This document shows positions 3,354-61,500 of a stretch of 64,000 nt of DNA, piece by piece. This stretch comes from Amoebidium appalachense. Lineage: Eukaryota > Protista > Ichthyosporea. The stretch spans positions 514,963 to 578,962 of the forward strand of contig CAVNZM010000009.1 in assembly GCA_963693365.1 (NCBI GenBank), written 5' to 3'. The notes beneath the pieces are model-generated. The model was not told where the DNA came from. It did no database searches and saw only the letters and a program-made list of their open reading frames with translations. The stretch's first letter is position 1, and every line of letters begins with the position of its first letter. The position numbers and the translations under genes are program-made.

Positions 3354-29006
<25,653 letters not shown>

Positions 29007-29300
29007 GGTTGCAGTGCTAGGCCGCTACGCCACGACTGTGCGCTGAGACTAAACGCTACTCCTATCCCTCTCTCTTTCTTTCCTGCCTACACGCGCGCAC
29101 CCGAGTATACACCTCTCTCTCTCTCTCTCCTTCCAGCCTGTCTTGCTGGCGACTCTGCCGATCATGTGCGCCGCCCGGAACTTTTCTGCAGCAGCCAACA
29201 AGGCCGATGCGATTGGCTGCTCCGACCTTACGTAAGGAAGACAACATCTGTTGACGTCATCAGGCGGCACTCAGTTCAACAACAGATCGCAGGGCCCGGG
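29007..29300 (-). promoter_or_regulatory. BRR2 5' UTR / proximal promoter
   Basis: CpG-rich stretch upstream of the ATG with GATTGG (CCAAT box, 29211-29216), palindrome CTTACGTAAG (29227-29236) and CRE-type TGACGTCA (29252-29259). Confidence 0.5.
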
Positions 29301-29575
29301 TATCATACCATACAGGAGTGGGCAATTTTTGATTTCTCCCTCCCCGGCCCCACCAGAGAAAATTTGATCTTTTTGGACCTCAAAGAAGTCAAATCCTGCA
29401 AAATCCACTACCGGGAGGCCAAAAAAGGGTGATTTCACAAAAAAGCAGGGTCATACATGAAAAAAAGAAAATAGGCGAGTTCAGTGGGCTGCCGATAAGT
29501 ATATTTCGTGCCTAACACGTACTGACGTGTTGCCCGTGCGACGTTATTATACATCTACTCAGGCGGCCCTTTTAA

Positions 29576-31014
29576 CCCCGCGTTGTTCCCTGTGCCATAT
29601 ATGGCACAAAAAAAAAAATTATGTACCCGAGATTCAAAAATCAAAATCTCGCGCTGCAGGCCACCTACGGAGGTGCTTTTTGCTTACCTAATTAGGTTAT
29701 GTATTTTCCTTTGGTAAGAAAGTCAAAGTTACCGGTATATAATTTAGTTTTCTAGGTTAGGTAAGCGTTTTCCTTCGAGGGGTCTATATTTTCAGAAGTG
29801 GCCGGCAATTTTCGCGTCCGGCGGCTTGTGCCCTATCCCGGGATTTGGCTCAGCCGTTGGCTGAGGCAGTCAGCCAAAATTACACATTCCAACGCCTGTG
29901 CAATAAAAAAGCATATGTGCTTGATTTTAGCGGTTTTGGGTGCTTCTGCTTGAATGAAAGCTATAAAAACAACACAGAAACATATATTATCATTGAAACT
30001 TAATATACTTTAAACCCCATTTGCACAAAAAACGGGGAAAATGAGCAGGAGCTCCCAGTTTCGCTACCAGCCGATAGCGTGGTCACCTCGTACTACATAG
30101 ATCAGGGGTCTCAATAGATCACACCGTGCAAAGCATCTATAGTCTGATCTATAGACACGCGACGAAATACGGTATGGGTTTTTAGATTTCATAATAACAA
30201 ACATGCAAGAAAGATGCAAATTATATGCTAATGCGCTAATATCTCTAAAGAAAAGGCCTTTTAGGGAAATGCAATATGCTTTCAATGTGATGCTCACCCT
30301 GTACGCAAAACATAAAGAAACAAAACAGAAGCGCAGACGATAGCTCAGAAAGGGGTTCATTGCATCCGGAGTGAGGTGATCTATACTTGTTCACGCTGAT
30401 AGGCTGGGCTGTCGACAATAAAACACGACGTGTGAAAATGGTTTTGTAAACGGGCGATATAAACAGGCATGGTATATTGTTGATTATCATTTTGACGCTT
30501 GAATAACTTAAATTATATTATCTGCTCAGTACACGATCATAATCAATACTGCATTACAGGGAAAGGAAGAACCTTTTGCGATATATACTTCAAACACACC
30601 ATGAGAACCGCCTGTCATTGGTGTTATATCATGCATTATGCTTCTCCAGTCTTCAGGTATGCACAAATAGTGGCTTAAAAGCGGCTCGTCTCTCATAAAT
30701 CCTTCAGATGCACTCGAGCGTGATTGACCGGATGATCAGCCGGAAAAGCGGTTTTTTGCTTTACGTGTATCTAATTTACAGGGTTCATGCGCCTTGAGCC
30801 CCAAATCGGCCGCGAAAAAGTCACAAAAGTGTGTCCGATCACGTGGTCGCAGCACGTGTTCCTACTTATAAACCCGCGTTTTTTTTTTACGGATGCCTAG
30901 ATGACACACATATCGTGCTCGGGTTGTAATGGTAATCGGAAATAATCATTTCTTCACATTAAAGTATACATGTGTTTCAGACTCATTTTGCCTGAAAACG
31001 GGAACAACGCGGGG
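29576..31014. mobile_element. Non-autonomous piggyBac-type DNA transposon (1439 bp)
   Basis: Perfect 15-bp TIRs CCCCGCGTTGTTCCC (29576-29590) and GGGAACAACGCGGGG (31000-31014), TTAA on both sides (29572-29575, 31015-31018), subterminal palindrome TGTGCCATATATGGCACA, and an AT-rich interior with no transposase ORF. Confidence 0.9.
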
Positions 31015-31017
31015 TTA

Positions 31018-31051
<34 letters not shown>

Positions 31052-31739
31052 AAGAAAGGAGACACGGCCTCAGTAGATGGTAGATTTCGTGCTGCCGGTA
31101 TACATGCTGCCGTGGTTGTTGCTCTAGACGGCAGTATGGCATTGCATGTGTCACGTGACCTGCACGTGAATGCGACCATGTGCAGGCACTGATTCTAGGG
31201 GGATTTGTGTGTGTGTTTTGGAGCACCGTCAAGGCAGAGGATGTGTAAACATGAAGTTTAGGGAGATCGTGCTGCTATTGTAACATGTGCACAAAACAGC
31301 CACGTGCACCACACTCCGGTGTACAGAACAATAATATGCACACGCGTCACTGTAATACCATGTATGCGCATGCCGCACAAGGTTTAGGAGACCACCACAG
31401 TATATACTATTTTCTTTTGGTTGATATCCATGTAGGAATGGTGTGTTGCAATTGTCATGATCAGCCTGAGGCAGGCACGTGTATTTACTGAATTACTAGA
31501 ACTAATGAATAAAATATACATTTGCTAAAAATGGCAAGGTAAATTGGGGCCAATTTATTATTTCCCCTTTTTTAAACGTTTTTTTAGCTCCAAGAACTTC
31601 GACGCCAAAATTTCTATATTTGGCTATCGTATATGATAATGAACACGTGTATTTAGAGTAGTTATGATAAATATGAGCGGCCCGTTACAAATACAGTGAC
31701 TTGAAAAACAGTGACCCACGAGCAGTTTTTCTTTTTATC

Positions 31740-31770
<31 letters not shown>

Positions 31771-32306
31771 ACACACCACCACCACGGTGACCACCACTAC
31801 CACCACCACCACCACCACTCCCCCCCCCCAAAAAAACCACACACATACATGCACGTGTACACACACACACAGAACACCACCACCACCTCCACTGGACCCC
31901 ATTTCCTCGTTGTTTTCTTAAGCCTTCAGACCAGTCCTGTACACTGGAGTTAAACAATTGAATTCACTGAGGCTGACATGCATCCACCCCCGCCTTCCAC
32001 TTCCCTCCCCCCTCCCCCCTCACCCACCTCCACCCCCACCCCCTCCCCCTCAACGAAGAAGGGCCCCCGTAAGCCTTGGGGGGGGGGGGGGGGGGAAGGG
32101 GGAGCTCTCGAGCCTCCGGGTAGGGAAGTGGGGTCCGGGGATTCGGAGAGGGGGGGGGGGGGGGGGGGGGGGAGGGGCATATAATATTGGGCCTAGATAT
32201 CATAGTATGGGGCCACGGGGGAGGGAGAGGTGGAAGGGGGGGAGGATCCACGGGAAAGACCTTTAGGTGCATGTTCTTATTTATAAGTTAGACCCCCTTC
32301 AAATCA

Positions 32307-32879: not shown

Positions 32880-33848
32880 GGCACAGAACCTGAAGATGGG
32901 TTAAGGCTCAGCACGTTTGCATTTCTGGACGAGCACCCCAGCGGCCCAGCCTGGTTCCACATCTACAGTCACCAACAAGCCAAAGGTGTGCCTTTGCATC
33001 TTCACGCAAGTGTGCCACTCACTATGTTTCCGTTGATGGAGCCAAGGACACCAGCTAGTTGCAGTATCCACAGCGTGGGTGAAATAAGGCACCCTGGTAG
33101 TGGCGGAAAGTAATAGTGATATTAGTGGTTTGGTGGTGGTGGTGGTGGGTGGGGGGGGGTGGGGGGGATACTATGATATTAATAAAAATCACTGTCCACA
33201 CCCGTAATGGTTGAGGATCTTGCTTGTTGATTTCCGTTTTTTATAATCCCCCCCCCCCCCCCCCCCAAAAAAAAAAAAAATGTTTAGCCCTGCTCGTTTC
33301 TTTTCAAGACGGGTGACCCACACATGTTCAAGTGAAGCCGTATCTGAGTTTGGTTTCGTTGAGAAGATAATGGGTCGAAAATCTGGTACTGCGGATGACT
33401 TGGGTCCCTGTGAGGATGGGATTTGGTAAGTAAGCATACGTGGCTTATGTGTTCCACGGGCTTGCACTCCGCATTGTGTTATCAGTTATGATTGTGTGTG
33501 TGTACTTCAAAATCCATACCTCATATTCTAAACCCCCTTATGTGGTCAACATACACTACACTTTTTACCTTACAACCATCACCACTTGCCATCCCGCACA
33601 CAACAGACAACATCCTTACCCACTTGCTCCGTCACATTTACACCCCCGCACACCCTGGCCACACAGCACGTAATACCCACAAATTTATTCCCTCGCTCTT
33701 ACACCCACGGACTCAGCAACTCAGCACCGCATCTACCACCTCCACCACTACCACCAGGTGCGGGCATGTACACACACACACACACACCCATGGCACCATC
33801 CAATACCAACACACACACACACACACGTGGCACCATCAGAATACCAAC

Positions 33849-34875: not shown

Positions 34876-36620
34876 AGACTTACGCTCACTCCACAATATG
34901 TGTATGTTAGCTTTACAATTGGTTCCGTGTACACAGACACACGCTGACACTCGATCACCACATGCACATCTGCATAGTTGAGGAATGTTGCCAATTGTGT
35001 TTTGACTGCAAACGATTGGTTCACTGGTCCCAGAGATCTCTAAATGAAAGTAACCAATCCGATTAGCACCTGGCATCCGGATTACATTCCAGACTGCTGC
35101 CCCACGGGTATATAAGCCACGTCTCTGCCAGGTGCAGAAATGGAGTTCAGTGATGGAGTAAAGACATGGAGTTCAGTCATGGAGTTAACACACTGAAAGC
35201 AGTAAAAAACGGGTCAGCGCCCAAGCGCGCCACGACGACCCTAGTCACAGCGGACTCTACTTCCAACAGGGTTATGGGCCCAGACACGACACCGCGGCCT
35301 CTAACTTCATTAGAGACTTTCGCTTCCACAAACTCCATCCGCAGCAGCCTGCGACATCAACGTCAAGTATTCCACTTCATTGGCGGGGCACGCACCACAG
35401 TGGAATGCACACCCCGGTCTACCCTGCAAGCAGCCACACTCACTCTCTCTTCTCTAGTGGTGTGTACACTTCTCCAATTGGGTAGGGGTGTTGGAGTGCA
35501 GACTTACGCTCACTCCACAATATGTGTATGTTAGCTTTACAATTGGTTCCGTGTACACAGACACACGCTGACACTCGATCACCACATGCACATCTGCATA
35601 GTTGAGGAATGTTGCCAATTGTGTTTTGACTGCAAACGATTGGTTCACTGGTCCCAGAGATCTCTAAATGAAAGTAACCAATCCGATTAGCGCCTGGCAT
35701 CCGGATTACATTCCAGACTGCTGCCCCACGGGTATATAAACCACGGCTCTGCCAGGTGCAGAAATGGAGTTCAGACATGGAGTTCAGTCATGGAGTTCAG
35801 TCATGGAGTTCAGTCATGGAGTTCAGTCATGGAGTTCAGTCATGGAGTTCAGTCATGGAGTTCAGTCATGGAGTTCAGTCATGGAGTTCAGTCATGGAGT
35901 TCAGTCATGGAGTTCAGTCATGGAGTTAACACACTGAAAGCAGTAAAAAACGGGTCAGCGCCCAAGCGCGCCACGACGACCCTAGTCACAGCGGACTCTA
36001 CTTCCAACAGGGTTATGGGCCCAGACACGACACCGCGGCCTCTAACTTCATTAGAGACTTTCGCTTCCACAAACTCCATCCGCAGCAGCCTGCGACATCA
36101 ACGTCAAGTATTCCACTTCATTGGCGGGGCACGCACCACAGTGGAATGCACACCCCGGTCTACCCTGCAAGCAGCCACACTCACTCTCTCTTCTCTAGTG
36201 GTGTGTACACTTCTCCAATTGGGTAGGGGTGTTGGAGTGCAGACTTACGCTCACTCCACAATATGTGTATGTTAGCTTTACAATTGGTTCCGTGTACACA
36301 GACACACGCTGACACTCGATCACCACATGCACATCTGCATAGTTGAGGAATGTTGCCAATTGTGTTTTGACTGCAAACGATTGGTTCACTGGTCCCAGAG
36401 ATCTCTAAATGAAAGTAACCAATCCGATTAGCACCTGGCATCCGGATTACATTCCAGACTGCTGCCCCACGGGTATATAAGCCACGTCTCTGCCAGGTGC
36501 AGTCATGGAGTTCAGTCATGGAGTGCAGCCATGGAGTTAACACACTGAAAGCAGTAAAAAACGGGTCAGCGCCCAAGCGCGCCACGGCGACCCTAGTCAC
36601 AGCGGACTCTACTTCCAACA
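34876..36620 (+). mobile_element. Tandem-array TRIM (non-autonomous copia-type LTR element): LTR-int-LTR-int-LTR
   Basis: LTRs at 34876-35268 (5' ~11 bp missing), 35489-36009 and 36230-36620 with termini TGTTGGA...TCCAACA. Two 220-bp internal segments (35269-35488, 36010-36229) begin with GGGTTATGGGCCCAG (complement of the tRNAi-Met anticodon arm, the copia half-tRNA PBS) and end with the PPT GGGTAGGGG. Each LTR has CCAAT and TATATAA. Flank AGGT(C) occurs on both sides. Confidence 0.9.
35762..35927 (+). repeat. 13-bp minisatellite (CATGGAGTTCAGT)n inside the TRIM LTRs
   Basis: About 13 units in LTR2 versus 4 in LTR1 (35138-35186) and 3 in LTR3 (36501-36538). LTR lengths (404 reconstructed, 521, 391) differ by multiples of 13. 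Confidence 0.95.
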
Positions 36621-37439
36621 AGGTCTACATTTCTTTCTCGGCCTTGGTCCGCAGAAAGACAAGCCCAAGACCACCCATTCTGTACTATTAATTTGGTTTT
36701 TGGTGGCCCAGTTGATGCAATTGCACCGGTAATGCCCGTATTATGTATGAATATGGCTCTATGAAGGCATAAAATAGATAAAGCACATGATGTATGATGT
36801 GAGTATACATACGGACCAGCGGCATCCGATGATTACAATACATACACGGTGCGAGAACAGAAAGATGCATACATCTCGCGAGGATCCACCCTTATATATG
36901 GATTTCAAAAGCCCCCCCCCCCCCCCCCCCCCCCCCCCAACAACAACAACAACAAAAAAAAAAAAAACAACCAACCAACCCCACCACTACCACCGTGACC
37001 ACTGGCCACACTGCACACACACACACACACAAAAAAAAATAAATAAATAAATAAATAAATAATAAGGATTCGAAAAGGAGAAGAAAAAAGAAAAAAAAGA
37101 AAAAGAAGAAAAGAAAAAAAACGCCCTACATATACTCAGTACACACACTATGCACACACACGCAGACACCATACTTGGTAAACTTATCCACAGCTTATCA
37201 CACAGAATGAGCAGGTCACACGTGCACCGTATACTCGAACTACTGCACGTACTAGACACACGTGCACACATTGTGACACACATAAACACACACAGTATCC
37301 GCAGACCCACAGTTTTTCGAACACAAAACAAGCGCCACGATGTATATACACAGGATGTATACACAGGACACACACGCGTGAACACACATCCCAACATATA
37401 CCGGGCCACAGGCCCTTCGAGTCTCTCCACATTCTACAC

Positions 37440-43816: not shown

Positions 43817-44217
43817 ACCACACACACACCCACCCATCCACCCACCCACCCACCCACCTGCCACAGAATGAAGTTCTCCCTGACCAGGCGCACCACCGGG
43901 GCCTCTCTCCACAAATCTCTGTTGAGTGTCTGGCACACAAACTCATCGCTCTTCTGCAGGTTGGCTAGCACGTGCTTGCCCTCGTGTTGCCCCTGCTGCT
44001 TGGCCTGGGGGGGGGGGGGGGGGAGAGGGGGGGGGGGGGGGGGAGGGGGAGAATGGGGGGGATTAGAATGCCTTACAGAGTACGAAGCACATGTGAACTA
44101 GGGACAAGACAGTACATATTTCGTTGTATTTATTGAAAAAAGAGGGGAAAAAAAAGATAAAAAGACATCCACAAAGACCTGGGGGGAGGAAGGGGGGGGG
44201 GGCGGGGGTGGGGGGGG

Positions 44218-52687: not shown

Positions 52688-52841
52688 AACCAGCAGCAGC
52701 TCCCCCCCTCTCCCCCGCCTAGCCCCCCCACCCCCTCCCCGCCCCTCCCCCCTCCCCCCCTCTCTCCCAACCTCGGCACGTCCAAATACACCCATCCTCA
52801 CAGGCACCCAAATCGACCTGGGGGGGGGGGGGGGGAGGGGG

Positions 52842-56159: not shown

Positions 56160-58635
56160 GTGTGCTTGTGTACATAGAAGTAGATTGGGTGTGTATGTAT
56201 TTGTGTGGTGACGCATGTACCGGGTGCCTTTGCACGTGTGTGGTTCACGTAGCGTTTGTATGTGTGTTTGCCTGGGATCCCGGTGCCTGGCTTGTTGGGG
56301 CCGGGTGGAAACGGAGGGGGTGGAAACGGGGGGGGGAGGGGGGGGGGGGGGGGGGGGGAGGGGGAAGGAGTTGGGGGGAGGGGGGGGGGGAGGGGGGGGG
56401 GGGGCAAGGGTGAGAACTGATGGTTGGGGCTGTGCAGGCAACCAAGGTGACCGAAATCTTGCCGAGCAAGGAGGACTACCTAAAGATATTCATGTACCGC
56501 ATGTGGGAGTTCTATAAAAGGTGTGTGTGCATAGCCCCGTGTGTGTGCCGCACTGTGCTTGCATGTATCTCTATGCCTGCTCTATGCCTGATCGATGTGT
56601 CTGTGCATGCTTGTGCCATCATCCACACGGATAGCTCATGTGGTATTTGTATTTCCAGTTGTGCATGTTGATGCCACCGTGTCACCCTTTCACCCCGGCG
56701 GTGTGGCAAGACTAGCAGATGCAAAATAGGAAAAACAGCCCGAAAACGCAAGTTTATGTCAATGTACTTTCATAAATCGTGCCTGCCCCCCCCCCCCCCC
56801 CCCCCCCCCCCACCACCACCACCACCATCTCCCCTCTCCTCCCCCCCCCACGCACCCACGCACCCCAACCCACCCCCCTCTTCCCTGGGGATACCCCTAC
56901 CTGATGTTTTCTAGCCCTTCCGGATCAGTGCCCATGTCATAATCTCACACATGCCACATCACGCCACGGGTCTACACCCAGCCCCGCATGCATGCAGAGT
57001 CTAATTATTGAATAACTAATGCGATATATATGTGGGCAGGGTGGACAACCCCTACGGCCGGTTTGTGATCATCTACGACCGACAGGGCAGCCATGTGAAA
57101 AAGGCCCAAATGGATGTCTGGAAGCGCCTGGTTCGCTTCATACTGAGTATGCACTGCAACCCCCCCCCCCCCCCCCCCCCTTGCGAATTCTGCGGCCTTC
57201 GGGACTTAATTCTTTTCAGCTCGTGTAGTATGTTAGCCAGGGAAGTATCGACTTAGGTAGCGACGGGGGAGCTTCCTAGAAGCCCCGTCTCCTGAGTTCC
57301 TATCTATATTTTTCTTGCTTCTGCTTACTGCTGCAACTTTAATCCCCGGCCTTTCCCACTGCCCTTGCCTGCATAAGTAACCCTGCTCGTCTCTGATCAA
57401 GACGGGTGACCTACCCATATTCAAGTGAAACAGTATCTGAGTTGGGTTTCGTTAACGAGGTGAATAGGTCGAAGCTCGGGTACTGTGGATGACGTGGGCC
57501 CCCCCTGAGGATTGGCCCTTGCTTATTATGCATACTCTTTGTGTATGGCTTGCATTCTGCATCGTGTTATCCGTTTGTTCTTGTGTACTTCGTACTTTTT
57601 GACGCATTCAAACCCCCGGGCCGCCGGGGAGCTGCCTGCCCGTTACCACCAAGAAGACACGGGGGGACGTCTCCACGAACATACAGACACGAATACACAA
57701 ACCCTTACACACCCATGCAGAGAACCATGCTAGTCATTGGTATTGGACAGGTAGGCAGGGGGGCAGGCAGGCCATAACGCACCACACATACATGCATACA
57801 CACAACCTGGGCCACATCCGAGCTCATGTGCACCCGGTATACCGAGCGAATAAGAAAGATCGCTAATAAGAAAACAACTAAAAGAGTAAGAATATGTATA
57901 GATAGACACTCTGAAAGTGATAGAGTGAGATTGAGAGGTCGAGAGAATGATACAGGAATACACACAAACATCATCCAGACACCCATGGTACCCCATGCAC
58001 TGCATAGTATACGGATATAACTCAGAATTTCTTGATGTGTGTCTGCAAAACTGCATCTCTACACAATAAACCACTGGTAGTGACACGTACCCCCAGACAT
58101 CTTTACTTCCATGCAACCGGGCATGGTTGCTCTGTGTCGTGCATCTGTAAGCACATACGCGTTTGTCGCTGCACTGCATTAGTTTGCACATACATCTTCA
58201 CCGTTTTGCTCACCTTGCTTGCATAAGCAACCCTGCTCGTCTTTGATCAAGACGGGTTGACCCACCCAAGTTCAGTTGATGCTGCTGTCTGAGTTGGAGC
58301 GTCGTATATACGCGGGCTAAGGGGTCGAAACTCAGACGCAATTGATGACTTGGGCCCTCCCTGAGGATGGGCTCTGCTTATGACGCATACTGTGCGCATG
58401 GCTGATGCTGCATACTTGAATGTTTGCCTTTGCATGTGTCCTGCACCATGCTTCTCATCGTGTATGCGTACTTCGTACTGTGTTCCGCATTCAAAACCCC
58501 CCCCCCCCCCCCCCCCCCCATGACGTTTTGCAGCTTGTTCCTTCGTGTCTCCTTCATATTTCCAACCCTCTAACACATACATCCCCCTCCCCCTCCCCTC
58601 CCTCCCCCCGGCCCACACACGCACGCACGCACACG

Positions 58636-58690
<55 letters not shown>

Positions 58691-59057
58691 ACACACACAC
58701 ACGTACAGTGCACCTCACGGAGCAGGTGCACCGCATCTACATTGTCAAGAGCAACCACGTGTTCCGCTACGGCCTGATGCTTCTGCGACAGGTCATGAGC
58801 CCCCGCTTCCGCCTGGTATTCCGCATCCTGGATGAAGAGGTGGGTGCGAGCATACTAATGTTTGCAGTCATCTGTTGAGGGAGGGGGAGGGGGGAGGGGG
58901 GGGGGGGGGGGGGGGGTAAGGAATCCCGGTTGGCACAGACCTGAAAGCGGTTTACGCTTTGGAATGGTGAGTCTCAGATGTGCATCAAGCAGCTTTTTGT
59001 CCTGAACCGAAGGGGCCCATAAATCGGCTTAAAAAACCCCCCTATTTAGATCCAAAC

Positions 59058-60959: not shown

Positions 60960-61500
60960 CGATATCAATCAGCCACAAAAAAACATCAGATCTGGTGCCT
61001 CTGAGCACGCTGGAATTCAACATTGCTCACGACCGAATTCATAACTTACATGTATTCTTAGCGAGCGAATTGTTTAGCTGGTATTCTGATGTCGGTAAAG
61101 TGCCCTCGGAGTGGCTAGACAACATATCAAGAAAACGGTTGCACGGGGTCCCATTCACGAATTTCGCCCTATCACCCTTACGTCCGTTTTTCGCCGATTA
61201 TTCGAAAGTGGCCTTTTACTGGCCTTTTCCCGTAACCCCACCCTTAAGCAGCTCCCCAGCAGAGCCCTCTTCAGGCGGCGTTTCAGCATCGACACTCATG
61301 TTACGCACAAATCCTCACCCTACAAAATGCAACTCAAAGTGATACCGAGCACCTCGTATTTATAGATTTTAAGAACGCGTACATAGAACCGGAGGTTATG
61401 GGCGGCTTTAGTCTCTTTTCTACTTCTCTCCCCCAGTATATTTGTGATACGGTGTCTTAACTTTCTCACTGCTAGCCTCTGCTTACCCATTGGCTGCGCT
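60960..61500 (+). pseudogene. Degenerate non-LTR retrotransposon reverse transcriptase fragment
   Basis: Collinear but frameshifted RT motifs: GKVPSEW, FRPITLTSVFRRLFESGLL, FRRRFSIDTHV, VFIDFKNAY, RLWAAL. Confidence 0.8.

Follow-up and report, generated by a model that had tools for sequence, protein, structure and literature searches.

A putative split hammerhead ribozyme near the 3′ end of a Naiad/Chlamys-like repeat that inserts into C-runs

An RNA domain near the 3′ end of a repeat element in the window (the whole 64-kb stretch of DNA analysed here) is probably a self-cleaving ribozyme of a Naiad/Chlamys-type Penelope-like retroelement, with a split form of the SGC block order and a predicted cut after a GUU. 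The sequence can assemble a complete hammerhead core and stems I, II and III in the order cut site, GAAA, CUGAnGA. Eckert et al. (2023; PMC10085705) defined three core blocks, S, G and C, and validated types SGC and CSG, which cleave in vitro at 0.004–0.19 per min; in the parts of that paper used here, the three blocks are assumed to be uninterruptible. The domain reads as a hammerhead variant that lies outside types I–III and outside SGC as so defined, and the new element of its architecture is a chain break between A9 and G10.1. Among the roles put forward in the original prediction, a rewired self-cleaving RNA is the best reading, with cutting predicted from sequence.

Architecture of the RNA domain

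Coordinates in this section are those of copy A on the forward strand unless another copy is named. The domain opens with the 5′ strands of two closing helices, P0a (57373–57379) and P0b (57381–57383), which form 7 of 7 and 3 of 3 pairs in copies B and C. These strands are followed by hairpin 1 (57386–57406), a 7-bp element that sits immediately 5′ of G10.1 and is fully paired (7/7) in copies A, B, C and E. The 5′ strand of stem II (57408–57413, with G10.1 at 57408) is thus supplied from upstream, and carries a U-A/C-G double change. A linker of 3 nt separates it from the 5′ strand of helix C (57417–57423), the counterpart of the helix that bridges stems I and II in types SGC and CSG. After the bulged strand of a kink-turn (57424–57429) comes block S (57430–57446), comprising the 5′ strand of stem III (57430–57442, ending in U16.1 at 57442), the GUU with its predicted cut 3′ of 57443, a site placed by analogy, and the 5′ strand of stem I (57444–57446).

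A small variable hairpin (57448–57459) lies in the linker between blocks S and G. Block G (57465–57486) holds the 3′ strand of stem II (57465–57470, with C11.1 at 57470), the GAAA segment (57471–57474), which reads GAAG in copy A, and the 3′ strand of stem III. It is followed by the non-bulged strand of the kink-turn (57487–57489), the 3′ strand of helix C (57490–57495), the 3′ strand of stem I (57502–57504), CUGAGGA-U (57505–57512) and the 3′ strands of P0b and P0a (57513–57526). A rival hairpin 3 would pair 57496–57501 with 57513–57518.

The stems (3–4 pairs in stem I, 5–6 in stem II and 9–13 in stem III) each adjoin core segments. Specifically, stem III carries U16.1–A15.1 and U17, and the G10.1–C11.1 pair of stem II adjoins GAAA. 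The core is complete in copies B and C (C3, U4, G5, A6, G8 and A9; G12, A13 and A14; the A15.1–U16.1 pair; and H17, which is not G), and the block order S, G, C is seen in copy B from U16.1 at 58294, G12 at 58327 and C3 at 58361. The core departs from this consensus in copy A, which has G at position 15.1 where the population has A, and in copy E, which has G at position 3. All 45 modelled pairs form in copy C, copy B fails at two of them and copy E breaks eight.

The helices on which the original prediction was built are present where it placed them, namely helix A (57408/57465, 33315/33371 and 58259/58322) and helix B (57431/57475 and 58287/58329) in the order A-B-A′-B′, together with GUU, GAAA and CUGAGGA, the GAAG of copy A and the broken core of copy E, which reads GUGAGGA. 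Its identification of three hammerhead core segments, with helix B as stem III and with stem I as it drew it, also holds. The flanking hairpins it listed are likewise in place, but GGGCCC/GGGCTC, perfect in copies B, C and D, is mutated in copy A. Two points have to be revised. Stem II had been thought missing, whereas helix A is stem II, because its G10.1–C11.1 pair is adjacent to GAAA and all modelled pairs form in copy C; and the linear order, described only as not being a type I, II or III permutation, has been published as type SGC (PMC10085705).

Nucleotide A9 is not joined to G10.1 directly or by 1–2 nt, and the best stem II strand lies roughly 100 nt upstream. Stems I and II form two pseudoknots between the capping loop of stem III and a second domain, which consists of the 3′ strand of stem I, CUGAGGA-U, P0, hairpin 1 and the stem II strand supplied from upstream. 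The far sides of stems I and II are joined by helix C, which has 6 bp and a bulge and shows one U-G/A-U double change. In a kink-turn, two helices flank a bulge of 3 nt and, after it, tandem G.A/A.G pairs. This pattern is present in copies A, B, C and E, in which the next pair is A-U, G-U or G-C, and the joint between stem III and bridging helix C is, as judged from its bases, a canonical kink-turn.

Conservation within and between families

Copies A and C represent one family (family A, 96% identical) and copy B a second (family B); copies A and B lie 470 nt apart. Between the families, compared through copies C and B, the core is identical at 14 of 14 positions, including all nine unpaired catalytic-core bases, and the kink-turn G.A bases at 4 of 4, whereas 37 of the 62 other unpaired columns are identical. 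Eleven of the 45 pairs differ, comprising five double changes, four single changes and two breaking changes, and a double change is found in each of stem I, stem II, stem III and helix C. Identity between the families reaches 131/162 (81%) across the domain, as opposed to 41/79 upstream and 64/116 downstream (roughly 52–55%). These flank values are near the levels of shuffled flanks, for which the means are 0.47 upstream and 0.46 downstream and the maxima 0.57 and 0.53.

A descriptor that specified all core bases and at least three pairs in stem I, four in stem II and five in stem III, in the order found, matches only copies B and C in the window. It matches none of 60 dinucleotide-shuffled windows and none of 20,000 shuffles each of copies B and C. 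When four copies are aligned, 93.2% of cells pair and 7 of the 45 pairs show double changes, values that none of 500 shuffles reach, although this covariation covers only three lineages and related sequences can beat such shuffles. Slid controls for the same alignment are 33–43% paired. The covarying pseudoknotted RNA of the original prediction is borne out to this extent. The nested folding energy is unremarkable (z from +0.35 to −1.55 over six folds). The Rfam search for which the original prediction called gave no match at the gathering score over the 64-kb window; three matches at E ≤ 10 in 57200–58600 are all irrelevant. The domain does not have the type I, II or III topology of the Rfam models.

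Public-run contigs reveal that the copy on which the original prediction centred is a privately mutated one. The population letter at 57474 is A (542,889 of 543,268 summed depth in X4 and 360,217 of 361,519 in X5), which restores GAAA, and the letters at 57419 and 57513 are also private to copy A. For family B, no core variant is among those listed in the thresholded variant tables. Position 58358 carries T>C at 19–34% of depth, a change that disrupts a stem I pair while the variants listed include none at the partner; this probably reflects family A contigs cross-mapped to family B. Changes 57412 T>C and 57466 A>G co-occur, at similar depths in three of four runs, and were not counted as independent covariation because they may come from cross-mapped family B or E contigs.

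The repeat element and its setting

Searches of the window sequence yielded nine fragments of the element, copies A to I. Their 5′ ends differ, eight of the nine share a 3′ end that is followed by a C-run, and all nine sit on the strand that reads C-runs. Many joints between a C-run and an internal position of the repeat appear in public-run contigs, the pattern of insertion into C-runs with 5′ truncation. The original prediction's placement of the RNA in the 3′ part of a retroelement-like repeat holds.

The longest copy in the window spans 437 nt. It is copy A (57181–57617, +), which is 5′-truncated and lies between C-runs. Copy B (about 58090–58500, +) has an intact RNA domain at 58220–58381 with its predicted cut 3′ of 58295. 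Copy C (11489–11807, −), which is near the majority sequence of family A, has an intact domain at 11575–11730 with its predicted cut 3′ of 11657. Another family A member, copy D (9178–9330, −), is truncated inside the domain. The diverged copy E (33285–33537, +) has C3 replaced by G and forms 10 of 13 stem III pairs. The remainder are an old decayed fragment (copy F, approximately 14690–14900, −), a decayed 3′ fragment (copy G, 1389–1537, −), a 3′-terminal fragment (copy H, 44058–44110, −) and a short fragment (copy I, 52782–52818, −). Copies E (at 33410–33416, +) and I share GUGAGGA in place of CUGAGGA, which suggests that an older subfamily may have spread despite its broken core.

Summed contig depth in public runs is 10^5–10^6 over copies A and B, whereas the unique sequence that separates the two has 28, 140 or 15. 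Summed depth does not equal copy number, but this excess makes it likely that the genome holds thousands of copies. Runs X15 and X16 contain both families as a few low-depth contigs with no unique flank, and add no new variation. Two runs presumed to be of RNA also contain the repeat, which carries no information on expression. A sequence-only model of the repeat gave seven matches in the window, of which six are known copies; the seventh, 61258–61338 (E = 0.51), was rejected on reading its sequence. No upstream continuation of family A or B occurs elsewhere in the window.

Copies A and B lie in sense orientation in a predicted intron (57147–58708, +; GT-AG, in phase) of a CRAL/TRIO-domain gene, for which the Pfam matches (CRAL_TRIO_N, E = 3 × 10^−4; CRAL_TRIO, E = 0.02) both fall below the curated cut-off. 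Copies C, D and F, also in sense, sit in introns of a Brr2/U5-200K helicase gene (about 5000–28100, −), many of whose introns contain C-runs and CA repeats. In a search of proteins of up to 2000 residues, a ceiling that probably leaves out the majority of full-length orthologues, a Brr2 exon matched animal proteins best, at 73% identity; a CRAL/TRIO exon gave no match. One of these introns holds a 269-residue open frame (12890–13805, −) with no Pfam match, after which come (CA)n and an extended poly(A) tract; it looks like the 3′ end of a LINE-like insertion. Two further regions differ from their surroundings. A tandem repeat at 34876–36624, with a unit of 620–740 nt at 95–98% identity, a TATA-like box and an internal 14-nt microsatellite, contains no CUGAnGA and is possibly another mobile element. 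The AT-richer stretch at 29300–31700 (GC 0.43 in 30001–32000), without the usual C-runs and CA repeats, is perhaps another insertion or an intergenic promoter region.

No open reading frame with an N-terminal GIY-YIG endonuclease, a CxC motif and a reverse transcriptase was found among those of the window, and no tandem pseudo-LTR unit among the nine fragments. A 15-codon frame at 57181–57228 (+) ends in a stop and resembles the P-x-G-L-N end of Penelope-like GIY-YIG endonucleases, with 6 of its last 10 residues matching a Naiad example. An in-frame stop lies just upstream (as read from contig ends), Pfam gives no match, and these bases could also be read as the branch point and acceptor of an intron.

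Craig et al. (2021; PMC8557442) report, in the parts of the paper used here, that Naiad and most Chlamys elements are without a canonical hammerhead, noting partial ‘HHR_core’ matches; they also conclude that the hammerhead may be no more than a parasite of Penelope-like elements, and record that Chlamys targets (C)n. Read by eye, the same helix order recurs in unrelated sequence near the 3′ ends of at least 10 of the 54 Naiad consensus sequences in the portions of that supplement used here, parsed from non-exhaustive motif look-ups. The examples are the element before Naiad_Mley (Naiad_Bfor by metadata order), with a stem I of only two pairs; three near-identical elements in parts 10–11 of the consensus file; and, from later parts, two (part 12), one (part 19), two from octopus (part 24) and one that is worn (part 25). 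By the same reading, stems II and III, helix C, hairpin 1 and P0 are all fully paired in the intact examples, and stem III meets helix C through a kink-turn, a bulge or an additional hairpin. In green-algal Chlamys, which are the published (C)n-targeting elements, no split fold appears in the motif look-ups and the one full consensus-file part covered. Three other Naiad consensus 3′ ends (File S5, parts 13 and 16; two of them in part 13, the other from the element before Naiad_Lpol) were interpreted by eye as intact type CSG, a type published so far, in the sources used here, from two metagenome sequences only.

The repeat shares with Naiad and Chlamys elements, as described in those parts of PMC8557442, 5′ truncation, a fixed 3′ end and a microsatellite target, which is (C)n as in Chlamys. 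Its 3′ end, AACCCC, is that of two Chlamys consensus ends, and its RNA layout is that found in Naiad 3′ ends; it differs in that its copies here offer no open reading frame by which to place it. These insertion traits and the RNA suggest that the repeat is a Penelope-like element of the Naiad/Chlamys type, or is derived from one as a non-autonomous form, an assignment made indirectly because no reverse transcriptase was found in the window. The layout is likely to be the hidden ribozyme of Naiad elements reported as having no hammerhead, for which cleavage would then be predicted.

Alternative readings, proposed action and known hammerheads

The three G nucleotides after CUGAGGA-U have three possible partners, namely P0b, hairpin 3 and a contiguous stem II, and the domain could be an ordinary contiguous type SGC hammerhead, or a two-state switch in which helix A and hairpin 3 form the inactive state. 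The contiguous stem II would arise by a one-base-shifted pairing of the downstream strand with the strand before GAAA (4–6 pairs, with a 2-nt insertion), and it passes the descriptor with six pairs in copy B and four in copy C. In nested folds, hairpin 3, in which the G nucleotides pair with the bases before stem I, exceeds P0b in stability by 5.6–6.9 kcal/mol, and the variation in copies E and G is compatible with it. However, the contiguous stem II is G-U-rich and 3–5 kcal/mol weaker than the duplex with the upstream strand (−2.3 versus −7.0 and −5.6 versus −8.5 kcal/mol), and the compensatory change belongs to the upstream strand. The strand after A9 also pairs better with P0b or hairpin 3 than as part of an uninterrupted block C. 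In the Naiad examples, as read from the portions of the supplement used, the upstream strand is fully paired and the post-A9 strand pairs with the upstream P0 strand, a layout that favours P0b over hairpin 3; hairpin 3 may be an off state. We therefore regard the contiguous or two-state reading as quite improbable.

Alternatively, the RNA might be derived from a hammerhead and not cut, serving as a recognition or packaging signal for a telomerase-like reverse transcriptase or as a site for a kink-turn-binding protein. Several observations fit such a role, including the broken core common to copies E and I, the presence of intact copies in sense introns of the Brr2 and CRAL/TRIO genes, and the strain of docking in a crude model described below. 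In addition, inserted copies retain about 170 nt past the predicted cut, so that their template must have been uncut or re-ligated. We consider this role unlikely, because the unpaired catalytic core is unchanged between families whose flanks are near random identity, because that core recurs in Naiads of several animal phyla (by eye, in the part of the supplement used) and because it is not obvious why a role in binding alone should call for the entire catalytic consensus. A chance origin of the helices and motifs in a GC-rich repeat would agree with the folding z-scores and with the lack of a relevant Rfam match, yet this explanation is largely excluded by the failure of any shuffle to match the descriptor and by conservation that is specific to the domain. 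The same layout in Naiads of unrelated sequence, read by eye from that part of the supplement, also argues against it, leaving it only the slightest probability.

Under the preferred reading, a self-cleaving RNA, the domain would have the shape of a dumbbell, one end acting as ‘substrate’ and the other as ‘enzyme’, with the bridging helix and the kink-turn between them. Docking of the two ends would rebuild the normal hammerhead active site, either head-to-tail between two copies or within one molecule after the bridging helix partly opens. The two docking copies would, with about even chances, be tandem pseudo-LTRs or two transcripts. When stems II and III are set coaxially in a crude A-form model, a linker that reaches 26–39 Å would have to span a gap of 40–53 Å, so docking of a monomer would require helix C to open, whereas head-to-tail docking would be unconstrained by the gap. 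This strain is not decisive against activity, because Eckert et al. see the same geometric puzzle in SGC RNAs that cleave. The likely role of cleavage would be to free element RNA of unit length from read-through transcripts, a function already suggested for the hammerheads of other Penelope-like elements, and re-ligation or an uncut template could give rise to inserted copies that span the cut site. The tolerance of intact single copies, in sense, within host-gene introns would be accounted for if cutting were slow or copy-dependent.

If the main reading is correct, a conserved hammerhead in Naiad and Chlamys that is invisible to descriptors would overturn the absence and parasite conclusion of Craig et al. 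(2021; PMC8557442), as stated in the parts of that paper used here. It would also break the uninterrupted-block assumption found in the parts of PMC10085705 used here, with thousands of genomic examples, and would offer a short RNA for the structural question of how SGC and CSG close, as monomer or dimer. A bolder version is possible but rather doubtful, in which the RNA is a seventh hammerhead architecture, an obligatory head-to-tail dimer that ‘counts’ tandem pseudo-LTRs, and the ancestral hidden ribozyme of the whole Naiad/Chlamys clade, here carried by an element that targets C-runs in a eukaryote that is probably not an animal. Were this so, self-cleavage would be near-universal in Penelope-like elements.

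The open-licence literature that we searched holds no account of a split hammerhead or of a Naiad hammerhead, and pattern scans of viral contigs and metagenomes revealed no homologue outside the window. A 19-base pattern matched 51 viral-contig loci, 16 of them with a stem III-like helix of at least five pairs; these were taken as chance because none of the 16 has more than one stem I pair. A 25-base pattern matched two metagenome loci, also dismissed as chance because both lie in the same phage capsid-like reading frame. That frame, of 376 residues, belongs to a phage-like head gene cluster (function assigned by eye; L052, 1290–2420, and L053, 5245–6375).

Among known hammerheads, type SGC (HRIMA-1 and its variants), as described in the parts of PMC10085705 used here, shares with this RNA the S, G, C order, stems I and II as pseudoknots, a bridging helix and an extra U after A9, the last read by eye from the SGC-1 oligonucleotides. 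In contrast, block C here is severed between A9 and G10.1, where P0 and hairpin 1 are located; a kink-turn connects both strands of the bridging helix to stem III; and stem I has only 3–4 bp. According to the same parts of that paper, SGC was found only in metatranscriptomes, and non-circular permutations are absent from the genomes of known organisms apart from one weak bacterial candidate, whereas the present RNA resides in a eukaryotic genomic repeat. Type CSG has the same circular block order, but its CUGAnGA stays contiguous with stem II and its opening lies elsewhere. The hammerheads of Penelope-like pseudo-LTRs, which are dimeric and slow as a rule according to the parts of PMC4209133 and PMC6765202 used here, also lie near the 3′ end of a retroelement, and dimeric action and low activity have been proposed for them (Cervera and de la Pena 2014, PMC4209133). 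Those hammerheads are of type I with a short or absent stem III, whereas stem III of the domain described here comprises 13 bp and the topology is split and non-circular.
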